64,000 nucleotides of DNA from Escherichia coli. GTDB taxonomy: Bacteria > Pseudomonadota > Gammaproteobacteria > Enterobacterales > Enterobacteriaceae. Positions 1,326 through 7,300 of the stretch are shown here, piece by piece. Numbering within the stretch: position 1 is the stretch's first letter; every line of letters starts with the position of its first letter. The stretch lies in NCBI RefSeq assembly GCF_003018115.1, contig NZ_CP027458.1. One strand, written 5' to 3'. The position numbers are program-made.

Positions 1326-4300
1326 TCATTTCAATAAACCTGGCGACCTCTGCCATCCCTTCCTGATTTTCAGCCTGCCAGCGTTCAGCACGCAGTCGCC
1401 GGGCTTCGTTCTGCATGGTCGTACTGACCAGACCGGAGATATTCACGTCATACGCCTTGAGCAGCTGATAGCTGTCGCTGTCAACTGTCACTGTAATACG
1501 CTGCTTCATAGCACGCCTCTTTTGACATACTTCTGGTATGCATATCAGTATATATTATTATGATGCAAAAATCAGCGCATTAATACACATACTGTTATCT
1601 GGCTTTTAGTAAGCCTTATTTATTTTACCTTACATTATGTTAACCAATAAAAATTAAAATCAGACTTATAAAAACAAAGCGTAATTATCGAATGACCATT
1701 TCCGGCAGATCCGATTTTTCTGTTATTTACGGGTTTCCGGAAGTGTACCACGCTGAGGAAATCATCATATTGCTGTTTTCCTCCCCTGCGCGGCGCATCA
1801 CAGGTCAGGGAGATGACACAATATATAGTGCCATGAGCAGCTGAACTAAGCACTACATGTTGTGCTTACGGGAGATAGCGCTGTGCGGAGGGAAAGGAAG
1901 ATCCTGAACAGCCGGAAACCGGATCTGTGCGGCAGAGAACGGGCAGGAGATATGATAATTAAGCAGCACACATAAAATCATATCAGATATGATTTTCACC
2001 ATTAAATACAAAACCATATCTGATATTATCAGAAATCAATAACACACAAATCATGCAGGATGTGATTTTTACCTTTAAGAACATTATCAGATGGAGCGTG
2101 CAGGATGGATGAAGAAAGGGTGTTTTCACTCAGCTATGAACAACTAACCCAGTTTGCGGAACGACGCATCCGGGAATGCAATCTGGACAGCCAGGGCGCG
2201 ATTTATCTCTGCGAGTCAGCCAAAGCCGGAGCCGTGCTGATCTTCTGGCATGAACTGGCCATAAATGGCTATGCCTCAATGAATGCCATAAAGAGACAAG
2301 AGCTCATTGACGCCGACGTTCAGCGCCTCAGAAAGCTCATCTGGCCGGAGGATGGCTGGAAATGACTCAGAGCCGCCGACCGTCGCCACTGCAGCGGAGA
2401 GTGCTGATTGTGCTGGCTGCCCTTGATGAAAAACGACCGGGCCCCGTGCTGACGCGGGACATAGAACGGGTGCTGGAGCGAAGCGGGGAAGCCCCGGTCT
2501 ACGGGCCAAACCTGCGCGCCTCCTGCCGTCGTCTGGAGGATGCCGGCTGGCTGCGTACCCTGCGCGCTCCGAACCTGCAGCTGGCAGTAGAGCTGACGGA
2601 GGCCGGCCGGGCTGTGGCACAGCCTCTGCTGCTGGCAGAACAAGACCGCCTCCGGGCAGAACAGCGTGCGGCAGAAGTCGTCGTACTGCCGCTGGTCCCG
2701 GCAGCAGGTCTGCCCGCAGATGGCACTTCTGCCACTGATCTGGAGGTGGAGCTGAACGGCATAACGTATCAGGGCTGCCGTGGGGATTTTGTGGTGCGTC
2801 TCGACGGCAGCACCTGTCTGCAGTTATGGAATAAAGAAGGCAGGGTTGTACGCCGGGAGGGCGATCCGCTGGAAGTGGCGCAGTGGCTGCAGGCCTGTCA
2901 CGATGCAGGAATGGAGGTTCGTGTGCAGGTTAATGAAAGCATCACCCCGTAAAAACATGCCTGCACGGTTTACACATCATCCCATGGTGGCAGCCGGTTA
3001 ACTTTCCTGCGCCACCAGTGGAAAGAGGCCGTGAGCAGTCCGAACAAAAAACCCCCCGTGATACTTATAATTATGGCCTCACCTGCCACCATTCCTGACG
3101 GCCCCCAGTAGATAAACCACATTGCACATCCCCAAGAAATGCCCCATAAGCTCCCCATCAACAGCGTGACCTGCCAGAACGGCATAAAGGGTAATGGCGG
3201 AAGCCGGATACCCAGCCGCCAGAGAATACACAGAAGAGGAGGGGCATAATTGCTCCGCCACATCTTTTTGCTATCCATCAGGGCAATGGCCCGGGCTTTT
3301 TTCTGCTCAAAGGTCACAGGAGCACCTCCGTTCCATGATGTAAACGTGACACAGCTTATTGTTATTGATTATTATTATCATGCTGTGGTTATGTTGTCAT
3401 GCATCAGTACACTGACAAAAGTACAAAAGAAAGGAAAACAGGCAGATGAACAGAAAATATTATTTTAATAATATGTGGTGGGATGGGTGACGGGGGGATA
3501 TATGCTGTATATGTCATGGGATTATGATTTTAAATACAGATTACTGTTCTGGTGTATTTCTCTCTGCGGAATGGTTTTGTATCCGGTTGCAAAATGGTAT
3601 ATTGAAGATACAGCTCTGAAATTTACCCGGCCTCATTTCTGGAACAGCGTTTTTTTTGCTGATACACCTGGAAAAATGGGATTGCTTGCTGTTTATACGG
3701 GTACTGTTTTCATATTATCTCTTCCGTTAACTCTGATATATATTCTTTCTGTTATTATAAAAAGGCTGTCTGTAAGATAGACAGCCTTAAATACCCCAGA
3801 ACTTATTCGCTTTTTCCACAAGCGTTTCATCAATCAGTGCACCGATGACAGCCATCAGTAAACCATATCCGATAATGCCTAAAGCGCTTCCGGTAAGAAT
3901 ACTGAAGACCAGAGCAACAAGAGCCGTTGCGGCATTACCTGCTATGATGGTTTCTGTTTTAACAAAAAAAGGACGCCAGTTACCTGTCCGAGCAGCCTTA
4001 CCAAACTCAGTGATCCAGTCGGCAAAATTTGTAATTTTTCCTGCATATCCCAGTCCGCGACGGAACCTGTTCAGATTAGACGATATATCAGACAGTTTCA
4101 CAGCCATAGCCCCCGCAGAAAGAGTACCTGCGAGAGACGATATTCTGTACGGTTCATATATTCATCCGAGGCAGGAATATCGGCCCGGTACAATCTGTCC
4201 GGGCCGGATGGGTAATTTACAGGATGTTCGCGATGGATTTAGCCAGCTGCTCTTCCAGTACAGGCTTCGCTTCTTCAAACTTCAGGTTAACCTTGTTGGC

Positions 4301-7300
4301 ATTAGATACCACACGGGTTTGGTATTTATGCTGATTTCCGGTTGATGTGCTGGTCTGCATTTTTGCACCGGAGGTTCCCTGACGGAGAGCTGCAACATTA
4401 TCAGTTCTGACTTTAGATGTTGTCCGCTCTGCAATCTGCACATCCGTGATCATGGTGTAGTTGATATCCTCCACCATTGCATCGGCTGCCATACCAATCA
4501 ACCCTGTGGCAATCCCTACACCCAGCGCCGCACCGGCAGAGCCGGAGTTATATCCTGTGATGCCGGTTCCCAGAGCTGCACCGGCAATGGCACCTTCATA
4601 ACCGCTGTTCAGCCAGGTCTGGGACTCCCGCAAATCCATTTTGTCTGCCTTCAGGACATTGGCCTGGATCCAGTAGTATGCCTTGTCAGGTGAGGTCACA
4701 ACCTGGTAGCCTTTGGCTTTAACGGCATCACTGATTTTTGCCTGTAATCCGCTCATATCCTTGTCAGATGTGTTTTTGATTTGCAGGAAAACGGTGCGTT
4801 CACTGGAAGGCTCCAGCCAGATGGTTTCACTCATCTGAGTTTTGACTTCAAGATTACGCTTCTTGATTGCTGTGCTCATCGCACCACACCCTGAAAGGAC
4901 CAGAGTGGAACTGACCAGGGTAACTATCATCAATTTTTTTGTTTTCATCAGAATATCCTTTTAACTAACAGACTCTTTTTTGAACAGACCTATTACTGAA
5001 ACTATTGCGGAGATATTATAACGATTTATGTCTATAACATAAATAAAGGAAAAATCATGACCTTCGAAATTAATAAAAATTAATATAAGAGTGTTGGTGC
5101 AAATGAAAGCATTGAAAAAACAATAAAAAATGATAAAATAAAAGTTTTATTCTTATTATAGTTAAATGTATTAGCTCAGACCTGAGCTGACAGTTACCGG
5201 TTATTTATACAGGTATCTGTCAGATTACATCTGGCTTAAATTTTTCTCGGCCCAGATGCACTTTCCATCAAGTAACGTTTCCATTGGCGTCCGCCCATTG
5301 CACATTTTTCCCTGATGGGTTCGCTCATTATTATAGCAAGTCATATTCGTCGTGTACTGGTCGTAACTCTGTTTTACAGAGTTCAGGACTGCAGACAGTT
5401 GGTCCCCCTAGAATCGGCATTATTGTCAGTATGGCTACTGGATTCGCTGACCATGCGATTAATAAAGTAATCACTTATTTCTTTAAAGTCTTGTATAGCT
5501 CTGGCACCAATATCATGACTAGCCCATGAACTATTACTGGCTTCATGTGAATAATTTCTTTTCGAAGGGTAGCCCAACTACCTGTAAAGACAGACTTCAG
5601 AAAAAACAGTGCTCGCCGCAGACCGGTGACCGGGCGAAGCCCGCGAACTGGCGAGGAAGCGCAATGTATCTGTAGTTACAGTGAGCAGGTACGCCCTGAA
5701 GCCCTTATAAGCGGTTGTGTATGCTGTTTCCCCTAGGATGATTTATCCACATATCCAGAGGTTCGATCCAGTAAACAGATCCATGAATGATCAACAAAGG
5801 ATCCATTAAAGATCCCCATATCTCTGCAAACCTTGTCACTCATGGGCCGGGACCACGATCACATAAGCTGTGGCATGTTACTAATAAACTGTAACATGCT
5901 AATAATAAGCTGTATTCAGTAATCCATATACTGAAGTAAGTTAATGACATAAACTATGGTCAGTACGCCAGACTCAGTTGTTAAATACAGGCTGCAGGTT
6001 TTTCTTCAGTCAGTTAGCGGGGCTCTGACACACGATTTGCTGTTTATTCTTTTACTGTCCACAGGCAGGAGGCTTTCTGGAAAACGAAAATTCAGACATC
6101 AAAAAACTGTTCGGCGAGGTGGATAAGTCGTCCGGTGAGCTGGTGACACTGACACCAAACAATAACAACACCGTACAGCCTGTGGCGCTGATGCGTCTGG
6201 GCGTCTTTGTACCGACCCTTAAATCACTGAAGAACAGTAAAAAAAATACTCTGTCACGTACTGATGCCACGGAAGAGCTGACACGTCTTTCCCTGGCCCG
6301 TGCAGAGGGATTCGATAAGGTTGAGATCACCGGCCCCCGCCTGGATATGGATAACGATTTCAAGACCTGGGTGGGGATCATTCATTCCTTTGCCCGCCAT
6401 AACGTGCCTGGTGACAAAGTTGAACTGCCTTTTGTCGAGTTTGCAAAACTGTGTGGTATACCTTCAAGCCAGTCATCCCGCAGGCTGCGTGAGCGCATCA
6501 GCCCTTCCCTGAAGCGCATTGCCGGTACCGTGATTTCGTTTTCCCGTACCGATGATAAGTACACCCGGGAATATATCACCCATCTGGTACAGTCAGCCTA
6601 CTACGATACTGAGCGGGATATTGTGCAGTTACAGGCAGATCCCCGCCTGTTTGAACTGTACCAGTTTGACAGAAAAGTCCTTCTCCAGCTTAAGGCGATT
6701 AATGCCCTGAAGCGACGGGAGTCCGCCCAGGCACTCTACACCTTTATAGAGAGCCTGCCCCGGGATCCGGCTCCGATATCGCTGGCGCGGCTGCGTGCAC
6801 GCCTCAATCTGAAGTCTCCTGTATTTTCCCAGAACCAGACGGTCAGACGGGCAATGGAGCAGTTGCGCGAGATTGGATATCTTGATTACACGGAGATCCA
6901 GCGGGGGCGGACAAAATTCTTCTGTATTCACTACCGGCGTCCCCGGTTAAAAGCGCCGAATGATGAGAGTAAGGAAAATCCGTTGCAACCTTCACCTGCG
7001 GAAAAAGTCAGTCCGGAGATGGCGGAGAAGCTTGCACTGCTTGAAAAACTGGGCATCACTCTGGATGACCTGGAAAAACTCTTCAAATCCCGCTGAACAT
7101 AAACTGTAGTCAGTGAAGAGCGCTCTTTTACTGACTACAGCTTATATTAAAAGGTGCAGTCAGTGGTCTGCTCACTGTAGTTTATATTCAGATTCCTGCT
7201 GTGCACTCTGTAACTGAGCTGCCATCTGCCTGCTCCTTACGTAAGTGACCCCGTAACCTGATGCTGAGGCATTGCTCCCTTCATAAAACATGACTTACTC

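Follow-up and report, generated by a model that had tools for sequence, protein, structure and literature searches.

We analysed a 64,000-nucleotide stretch (hereafter the window) of the Escherichia coli contig NZ_CP027458.1 (RefSeq assembly GCF_003018115.1), which comes from a virulence plasmid and carries two copies of traT, the gene for the TraT lipoprotein of F-like transfer systems. One copy belongs to an intact F-like transfer operon (59457-60188, minus strand, 243 aa; the operon copy). The other is an orphan of 243 codons (4217-4948, minus strand), whose open reading frame (ORF) is intact within a scar of transfer, insertion sequence (IS) and colicin gene fragments next to a RepFIB-type replicon. 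Our comparisons show that this scar belongs to the backbone of pO113-family ehx virulence plasmids and is older than the second traT copy, and that the plasmid type of the window consists of a pO113-family backbone with a fused whole IncFII F-like conjugative plasmid of ~55-60 kb. The complete account, in which the orphan is an old resident and a retained gene, the IncFII plasmid a fused newcomer, and a crossover between the two copies would give rise to two circles, is in our judgement very probable.

The 2.8-kb module at window positions 3400-6200 was found at full length and with 97-100% identity in 42 PLSDB records, and its scar of traS, IS and traG pieces in 40 records at a coverage of at least 80%. 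When 5,426 complete E. coli genomes were searched, the scar was likewise present in all 40 best rows, giving at least 40 occurrences there. The carriers originate from cattle, food, and patients and include pO113 (O113:H21 strain EH41), pO104_H21, and plasmids of O178:H19, O22:H8, O68:H12, and O43 strains. Many of them have no F-type transfer region, so that the orphan is their only traT; numerous plasmids of LEE-negative Shiga toxin-producing E. coli show this single-traT arrangement beside RepFIB repA. pO113 itself is typed as IncFIB plus IncI-gamma/K1 with MPF_I, and its sole traT lies between ccdAB/DUF6404 and repA, the same placement as in the window. The alignment between the window and pO113 spans every junction with 0.7-5% divergence and without any junction indels. 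Since the scar has identical junctions among the pO113-family plasmids, it was formed once, before their divergence, and its presence in single-traT plasmids with IncI-type transfer identifies the orphan as an old resident. The history implied by the first-pass annotation, made from the sequence of the window alone, is thereby reversed: the orphan belongs to the old pO113-family backbone, and what arrived later is the intact tra region, which shows 96-98% collinearity with free IncFII plasmids of ~60 kb such as pJNE151685-2.

The scar beside RepFIB is a convenient lineage marker of the pO113 family, although the finding of an orphan traT matters little beyond bookkeeping. Dozens of RefSeq records already annotate the locus, which falls into the well-known class of decayed tra genes on large virulence plasmids. 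The paper on pO113 by Newton et al. (2009; PMC2681110) named repA as the replication initiation gene and mentions neither traT nor colicin, and a 2022 paper on O113:H21 contains no discussion of traT. The small ehx plasmid AP042507.1 (61.6 kb) carries the colicin-traT-IS481-stub scar at 19554-23201 and has an IS3-family element at the place expected for RepFIB repA. The scar is thus separable from RepFIB by later IS activity.

The operon copy can be traced to a free plasmid type. pJNE151685-2 (AP027260.1), a 60.7-kb conjugative IncFII plasmid with MPF_F, is collinear at 95-98% with window positions 44190-64000 and with 36.5-86.1 kb of CP073590.1, which is the closest fully sequenced relative with two traT copies. 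The TraT protein of AP027260.1 shares the accession WP_033800894.1 with the operon-copy TraT of CP073590, and the operon copy of the window differs by 6 nt from the traT of pJNE151685-2 and by 2 nt from that of CP073590. In strain JNE151685, AP027260.1 resides beside AP027259.1, a 173.6-kb pO113-like plasmid bearing the scar, as a separate plasmid. This one strain therefore contains both putative parents of the window-type plasmid, and the orphan TraT evidently does not prevent the co-residence of AP027259.1 and AP027260.1. The fused plasmid, similar to pJNE151685-2, brought the traG-traS-traT-traD genes now found in the window, in place of the IncI-type transfer region of pO113. These comprise the intact traG (60739-63561, minus strand, 940 aa), an entry-exclusion gene at the traS position (60220-60732, minus strand, 170 aa; annotated as "surface/entry exclusion protein" in relatives), the operon copy of traT, and, downstream of it, traD (56294-58492, minus strand, by homologous annotation).

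The pO113-like segment of the window ends at about 43038 and the F-like segment reaches about 44190. Between them lies the C-terminal fragment of an IS91-family transposase (43051-43530, plus strand; 85 bits, profile positions 238-355 of 356), which may mark how the fusion happened. We also considered a fusion of the parental plasmids by a crossover between their traT genes and rejected it, as it would leave traS-traT-colicin and ΔtraS-traT-traD junctions; the arrangement in the window differs, and neither junction was found in the databases.

The two traT copies are direct repeats located 55,240 bp apart. Their TraT proteins are identical at 233 of 243 residues and encoded in the same orientation, as the first-pass annotation had stated and as both the ORFs and a self-BLAST of the window confirm (4233-4961 matching 59473-60200, 96.2% over 729 bp, direct orientation). 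At the nucleotide level, 701 of 732 positions are identical (95.8%). The 31 nucleotide differences correspond to 19 synonymous and 10 non-synonymous codon differences, and the longest perfect runs shared by the two copies are 153, 82, and 72 bp. The homology ends at the ORF boundaries plus ~13 bp upstream, beyond which the flanks on both sides are unrelated. A second direct match, 5340-5519 with 61358-61538 (88.4% over 181 bp), reflects the traG fragment of the scar.

The two TraT proteins differ at residue 136, the first position of a pentapeptide that had earlier been suggested to determine exclusion specificity and that reads GSAGA in the orphan, SSAGA in the operon copy, and NSAGA in F. 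Different exclusion specificities mediated by the pentapeptide would be conceivable from this G/S difference, but NSAGA, SSAGA, and NSAGG had no effect on exclusion in a comparison without the GSAGA of the orphan (PMC12658005), and we did not retain this explanation. Gene conversion or homogenisation between the copies could be ruled out. Of the orphan alleles, that of the window is the farthest from the operon copy, and it is only 1 nt away from the orphan of the single-copy plasmid pO104_H21. The orphan of the two-copy plasmid CP073590 is identical to that of single-copy plasmids. The two differences between the operon copies of the window and CP073590 are isolated single sites without any tracts. 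A mosaic origin of the pO113 orphan allele was also discarded, because the pattern of sites fits a simple ladder tree, with which only site 105 is incompatible.

When read along the minus strand, the scar runs from RepFIB through a traG fragment, the right end of an IS481-family element, a traS 3' remnant, and traT with its 3' hairpin to the tail of a colicin Ia gene and an immunity gene. The RepFIB-type replication initiator gene repA (6119-7096, plus strand) diverges by 0.7% from pO113 repA (106112-107089). In a sensitive search, the 659 bp preceding the orphan traT fell into three unrelated pieces. The outermost (5340-5550, minus strand) is a frameshifted internal traG fragment of ~210 bp, comprising about codons 665-735 of 940, with 88.4% identity over 181 bp to codons ~675-735 of the traG in the window and 81-88% identity to annotated traG genes in many plasmids. 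A traG fragment of about 250 bp had been proposed in front of the orphan; the fragment is real, but it is internal and only ~180-210 bp long. The absence of traS between the two, claimed at the same time, did not hold, because both a traS stub and an IS481 stub reside there. The IS481-family right (3') end (5167-5339, minus strand, 173 bp) contains the last ~37 codons (~110 bp) of the transposase and the terminal non-coding end. It is 87.6% identical to the end of an annotated IS481-family transposase in an Erwinia plasmid and 96-98% identical to many plasmids, and the NCBI Prokaryotic Genome Annotation Pipeline (PGAP) lists it in CP024291 and others as a pseudogene, "IS481 family transposase, missing N-terminus".

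The traS 3' remnant (4949-5166, minus strand; ~205-218 bp, about 68 codons) represents the 3' third of the gene, with a frameshift and stops, and its homology continues unbroken into the orphan traT. Its translation corresponds to the C-terminus of the "MITHYDIK...KKESVS" type of TraS and is unrelated to the 170-aa protein encoded at the traS position of the intact operon. By blastn, the remnant is 84.5% identical to traS of CP057017.1 (pRHB40-C11_2; window 5166-4962) and 81% identical to traS of AP027260, and it is collinear at 82% with traS-traT of plasmid L004. As the remnant is of a different family, the orphan locus is not a duplication of the intact operon. The 3' flank of the orphan traT (4096-4216, minus strand; 109-120 bp past the stop codon) includes a GC-rich terminator-like hairpin and is joined to the colicin fragment at about 4096-4107. 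From window position 4096 onward, the sequence is contiguous with traT-traS-traG in CP027641.1, CP045714.1, and CP075653.1, and is thus the ordinary flank of complete tra operons. The orphan locus is therefore indeed the footprint of a second F-like transfer region, with the traG-traS-traT order kept on one strand and followed by the traT 3' flank. It is no longer a functional F-like operon, as traG and traS are wrecked, an IS481 fragment is inserted, and the colicin tail stands in place of traD.

The colicin remnant (3787-4107, minus strand) consists of the last 106 codons, a part of the pore-forming domain, with ~520 N-terminal residues lost. A phmmer search matched it to residues 500-602 of colicin Ia (PDB 1CII) with an E-value of 1.9e-55, and the nucleotide homology to cia-imm stops at about window position 4103, directly past the traT 3' flank. 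The three domains of full-length colicin Ia (translocation, receptor-binding, and pore-forming) are not present together in the remnant, whose homologue in CP024291 is flagged by PGAP as a pseudogene, "incomplete, missing N-terminus". The adjacent immunity gene of colicin Ia type (3475-3780, plus strand) is a 101-aa ORF; in relatives, the PGAP call is limited to its 3' 210 nt. It is annotated as "colicin E1/1A immunity protein" in homologous records, and the ORF had no match in NCBIfam. Many of the full-length cia-imm matches lie on plasmids of 84-105 kb, a size that we associate with IncI1, to which these plasmids may belong. PGAP gives the order colicin pseudogene, traT, IS481 pseudogene, and RepB-family initiator at the homologous locus of CP024291. 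A separate observation concerns the immunity gene without the colicin tail (window 3441-3787), which occurs with 98.3% identity in many E. coli plasmids of 68-210 kb, including plasmids from blood, urine, and wastewater, whereas complete cia-imm operons reach only 94%. An Rfam scan found no RNA family in or beside the orphan locus.

The scar may have been built in three steps: insertion of an IS481-family element into traS, a deletion from inside this element into traG, and an illegitimate join between a truncated cia and the 3' flank of traT. A search for less-decayed intermediates yielded the pieces separately and no record in which more of traS or traG is joined to the IS or RepFIB.

Within this decayed neighbourhood, the orphan gene itself has remained whole. 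The orphan TraT matches the NCBIfam equivalog NF010291 over residues 1-243 on profile positions 1-243 with 515.6 bits (cutoff 445), has a lipoprotein signal peptide with the lipobox LSGC, and aligns without gaps from residue 21 to 243 with residues 1-223 of mature F TraT in the cryo-EM structures of 2025 (9FS5/9E2V) at an E-value of about 1e-128. We examined seven orphan alleles (window, pO104_H21, RM14516, O43, O68:H12, pO113, and OkiPb01680). The 732-nt ORF is intact in all seven, which encode four protein variants. The more diverged pairs differ by 9-11 synonymous and 1-4 non-synonymous changes, with ratios of non-synonymous to synonymous substitution rates (dN/dS) of 0.03-0.13 (3-15 substitutions per pair across the comparisons); among the less diverged O43 pairs the ratio reaches 0.23, and overall it is about 0.1. 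Within the retained traS 3' end, a TATAAT box and a Shine-Dalgarno sequence precede the ATG and are conserved with the working traS-traT junction, and the -35 element, judged by eye, is poor. In F, traS and traT reportedly have promoter and terminator activities of their own, a result said to be that of Jalajakumari et al. from 1987. We infer from these sequence features that purifying selection has kept the ORF intact and that the orphan probably still makes a TraT lipoprotein useful for serum resistance or surface exclusion. The orphan alleles may also have been exchanged occasionally with other traT genes.

The consequences of a crossover between the two copies depend on the distribution of replicons over the plasmid. 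The copies bracket an arc of ~55 kb containing RepFIB repA, ehx, the YadA-like sab, saa, iha, the lactate (lut) operon, IncFII repA, CopA, sok, finO, traX, traI, and traD; the first-pass annotation had correctly listed ehx, sab, saa, iha, the lactate operon, and the IncFII replicon in it. The segment of the IncFII replicon and sok (45044-47038, minus strand) comprises repA (45044-45901; TIGR03474 incFII_RepA, 582.6 bits, cutoff 446.9), CopA RNA (45986-46075, plus strand), repA2/copB (46203-46460), and an Rfam match to sok (46883-47038). Both the IncFII replicon and RepFIB repA therefore lie inside the bracket. Outside it is the addiction module of ccdB (984-1289) and ccdA (1291-1509), both on the minus strand and matching NCBIfam equivalogs (CcdB 214.2 bits, cutoff 147; CcdA 162.9 bits, cutoff 100), together with the colicin remnant and a resD-like recombinase; in relatives, this other arc also contains parM, the leading region, oriT, and traM-traS. 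Neither the full PGAP annotation for CP024291 nor the PLSDB table for CP073590 lists a replication initiator in the non-bracketed arc. The label "IncFIA" given to CP073590 by MOB-suite refers to the IncFII-type repA, since AP027260 is labelled alike and has only that rep gene.

RecA requires a minimal processing segment of ~25-50 bp of uninterrupted identity in E. coli, a length said to go back to Shen and Huang in 1986. As direct repeats of 729 bp at 96.2% with a perfect run of 153 bp, the two copies could undergo a RecA-mediated crossover, the rate of which would be lowered by the 4% divergence and mismatch repair. On the circular plasmid, a crossover between the traT copies would yield two circles. 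The first, of ~55 kb, would hold both replicons, hok/sok, the virulence genes, and traD/traI/traX, and would replicate; the second, with ccdAB, parM, the leading region, oriT, and traM-traS, would be replicon-less. The bracketed arc is thus not dispensable for plasmid replication, and with both replicons inside it, no plasmid would survive a deletion of the virulence block. Only one product would replicate; it would retain this block but be deprived of the transfer functions together with ccdAB. The ccd module acts by post-segregational killing, so that cells with a ccdAB-less product would face killing by CcdB and should be counter-selected.

We built the two predicted chimeric junctions as queries, counting a coverage of at least 80% as a match. 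The replicon-bearing junction (traD-orf203-traT/traT-ΔtraS-RepFIB) occurred in none of 72,556 plasmids and none of 5,426 complete E. coli genomes, and the reciprocal junction in none of the 72,556 plasmids. The direct two-copy layout is kept in at least five plasmids (CP073590, CP023164 from O22:H8, CP027581, CP027375, and CP075641). The placement of the replicons and ccdAB fits this stability as well as the absence of recombinant junctions from the databases. For predictions of instability from repeats in general, it is worth checking on which of the two arcs the replicons and the addiction module are located; the virulence block here is the very part not losable by a crossover between the traT genes.

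These results bear differently on the other explanations for the second traT. In the original proposal, the orphan derives from a second F-like region acquired through a cointegrate with a colicin plasmid, and RecA-mediated recombination between the copies deletes the ehx-saa-iha-lut-IncFII block. The fragments do keep the F-type gene order, a genuine colicin remnant borders the 3' flank of traT, and the direct repeats with their long perfect run allow a crossover. A cointegrate is, however, neither shown nor needed. The scar is older than the F-like region of the window and occurs in single-traT plasmids with IncI-type transfer, and the colicin is of the Ia type, with many full-length homologues on the 84-105 kb plasmids described above. 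As for the deletion, both replicons are located in the block and, in relatives, none in the reciprocal arc, and the plasmids and genomes searched contain no deletion junction. We consider this proposal quite unlikely. A recent duplication of the operon copy within the plasmid, or an assembly artefact, could be suspected from the high identity and same orientation of the two genes, and deserves practically no credence. The 31 nucleotide differences, the homology ending at the ORF edges, the different type of traS upstream, and the different flank downstream all argue against it, as do the pO113-type plasmids with the orphan alone and the recurrence of the pair in at least five independent complete assemblies; on these grounds, we regard this reading as refuted.

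The orphan could also be a functionless neutral relic that hitch-hikes with RepFIB and has not yet been hit. The tra, IS, and colicin sequences around it are all wrecked, no strong consensus promoter was found, and traT and its flanks have diverged to a similar extent at the nucleotide level (2.0% and 1.8-3.1%, respectively). Against this stand the intact 732 nt in seven of seven alleles, a strong synonymous bias (synonymous to non-synonymous changes of 11:4, 9:4, 11:1, and 9:1 in the four most diverged pairs), the full-length gapless match to functional F TraT, and the retention of the traS 3' end and downstream hairpin, which flank traT in working operons. A neutral relic therefore seems unlikely to us. 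A more specific proposal assigns roles to the gene: the orphan TraT would be a selectively retained stand-alone gene tied to RepFIB, which in pO113 excludes RepFIB-incompatible F-type plasmids or gives serum resistance, while in the fused plasmids the pair of GSAGA and SSAGA would raise the dose or broaden exclusion, and the fusion would be locked against resolution by a traT crossover through the location of ccdAB on the replicon-less arc. We put this forward tentatively, as a possible but rather doubtful elaboration.

Several points weigh against our account of an old, retained orphan, a fused newcomer, and a two-circle crossover. A strict consensus promoter scan of the minus strand upstream of the orphan traT found nothing, and few substitutions underlie each of the orphan dN/dS values. 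The synonymous divergence of the orphan between the window and pO113 (dS 0.067, 11 changes) exceeds the 1.8-3.1% divergence of the pseudogene flanks, so that some exchange of alleles with other traT genes is possible. The succession of steps leading to the scar is reconstructed from its end product. The window covers 64 kb only, and its own plasmid was absent from PLSDB and the complete E. coli genomes, where the best matches covered 76% of a 20-kb probe, so the replicon-less outer arc rests on the sequences of relatives, and the counter-selection through ccdAB is deduced from ccd biology. Finally, the absence of recombinants from databases is weak evidence on events that are rare within populations.

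Other features of the window may be noted here. An ORF of 203 aa with a lipoprotein-like N-terminus (58774-59385, minus strand) lies between the operon copy of traT and traD; it is also found in the free 55-61 kb IncFII plasmids including pJNE151685-2, and has no NCBIfam match. F-like tra regions that are otherwise collinear have exchanged the exclusion cassette located between traG and traD. The 170-aa gene of the window (60220-60732) is unrelated to the "MITHYDIK" TraS encoded at 28230-28739 of AP027260, and traS and traT are both missing from the corresponding region of CP024291 (13123-15297), which instead contains a gene with a heavy-metal-binding domain and two hypothetical genes that are unrelated. 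In traD, a perfect repeat with a 9-bp period (56573-56643) encodes a (QQP)n tract near the TraD C-terminus. The saa region contains tandem 111-bp repeats with 98-99% identity (38009-38433) and is flanked by a 259-bp inverted repeat with 89% identity (36373-36631 and 39015-39273). Rfam matches at gathering score were AS-traI (53369-53445), AS-traG (62757-62842, within the intact traG), AS-pc02 (48295-48437), CopA (45986-46075), and sok (46883-47038).

Among known systems, pO113 (NC_007365.1) is closest to the orphan locus, having the same scar and junctions with 96.9% identity over 2.8 kb and the traT annotated in its record. It differs in possessing this traT only, along with IncI/R64-like transfer, whereas the plasmid of the window has a complete F-like IncFII transfer region and the second traT. 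The orphan locus shares the gene order and orientation of traG-traS-traT-traD in F, and the mature TraT proteins align without gaps over 223 residues; unlike F, the locus retains only ~210 internal bp of traG and a frameshifted 3' third of traS, with an IS fragment between them and the colicin Ia tail in the position of traD. The free IncFII F-like plasmids of ~55-61 kb (AP027260.1, CP061237.1, AP026744.1, and CP027580.1) represent the source type of the operon copy, but they are separate replicons without the virulence backbone, and their traS is of the "MITHYDIK" type, similar to the orphan remnant and unlike the gene at the traS position in the window. Decayed F-type tra pieces on a RepFIB/IncFII plasmid are likewise found in pO157 and other large virulence plasmids, although the set of surviving F-transfer genes in pO157 differs from that of the window. 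As for colicin Ia (cia/iia, 1CII), the last 103 residues are matched and the immunity gene lies on the opposite strand, as in the operons of pore-forming colicins. The remnant amounts to ~17% of the protein and lacks the receptor-binding and translocation domains, and hence it is no longer a colicin gene.

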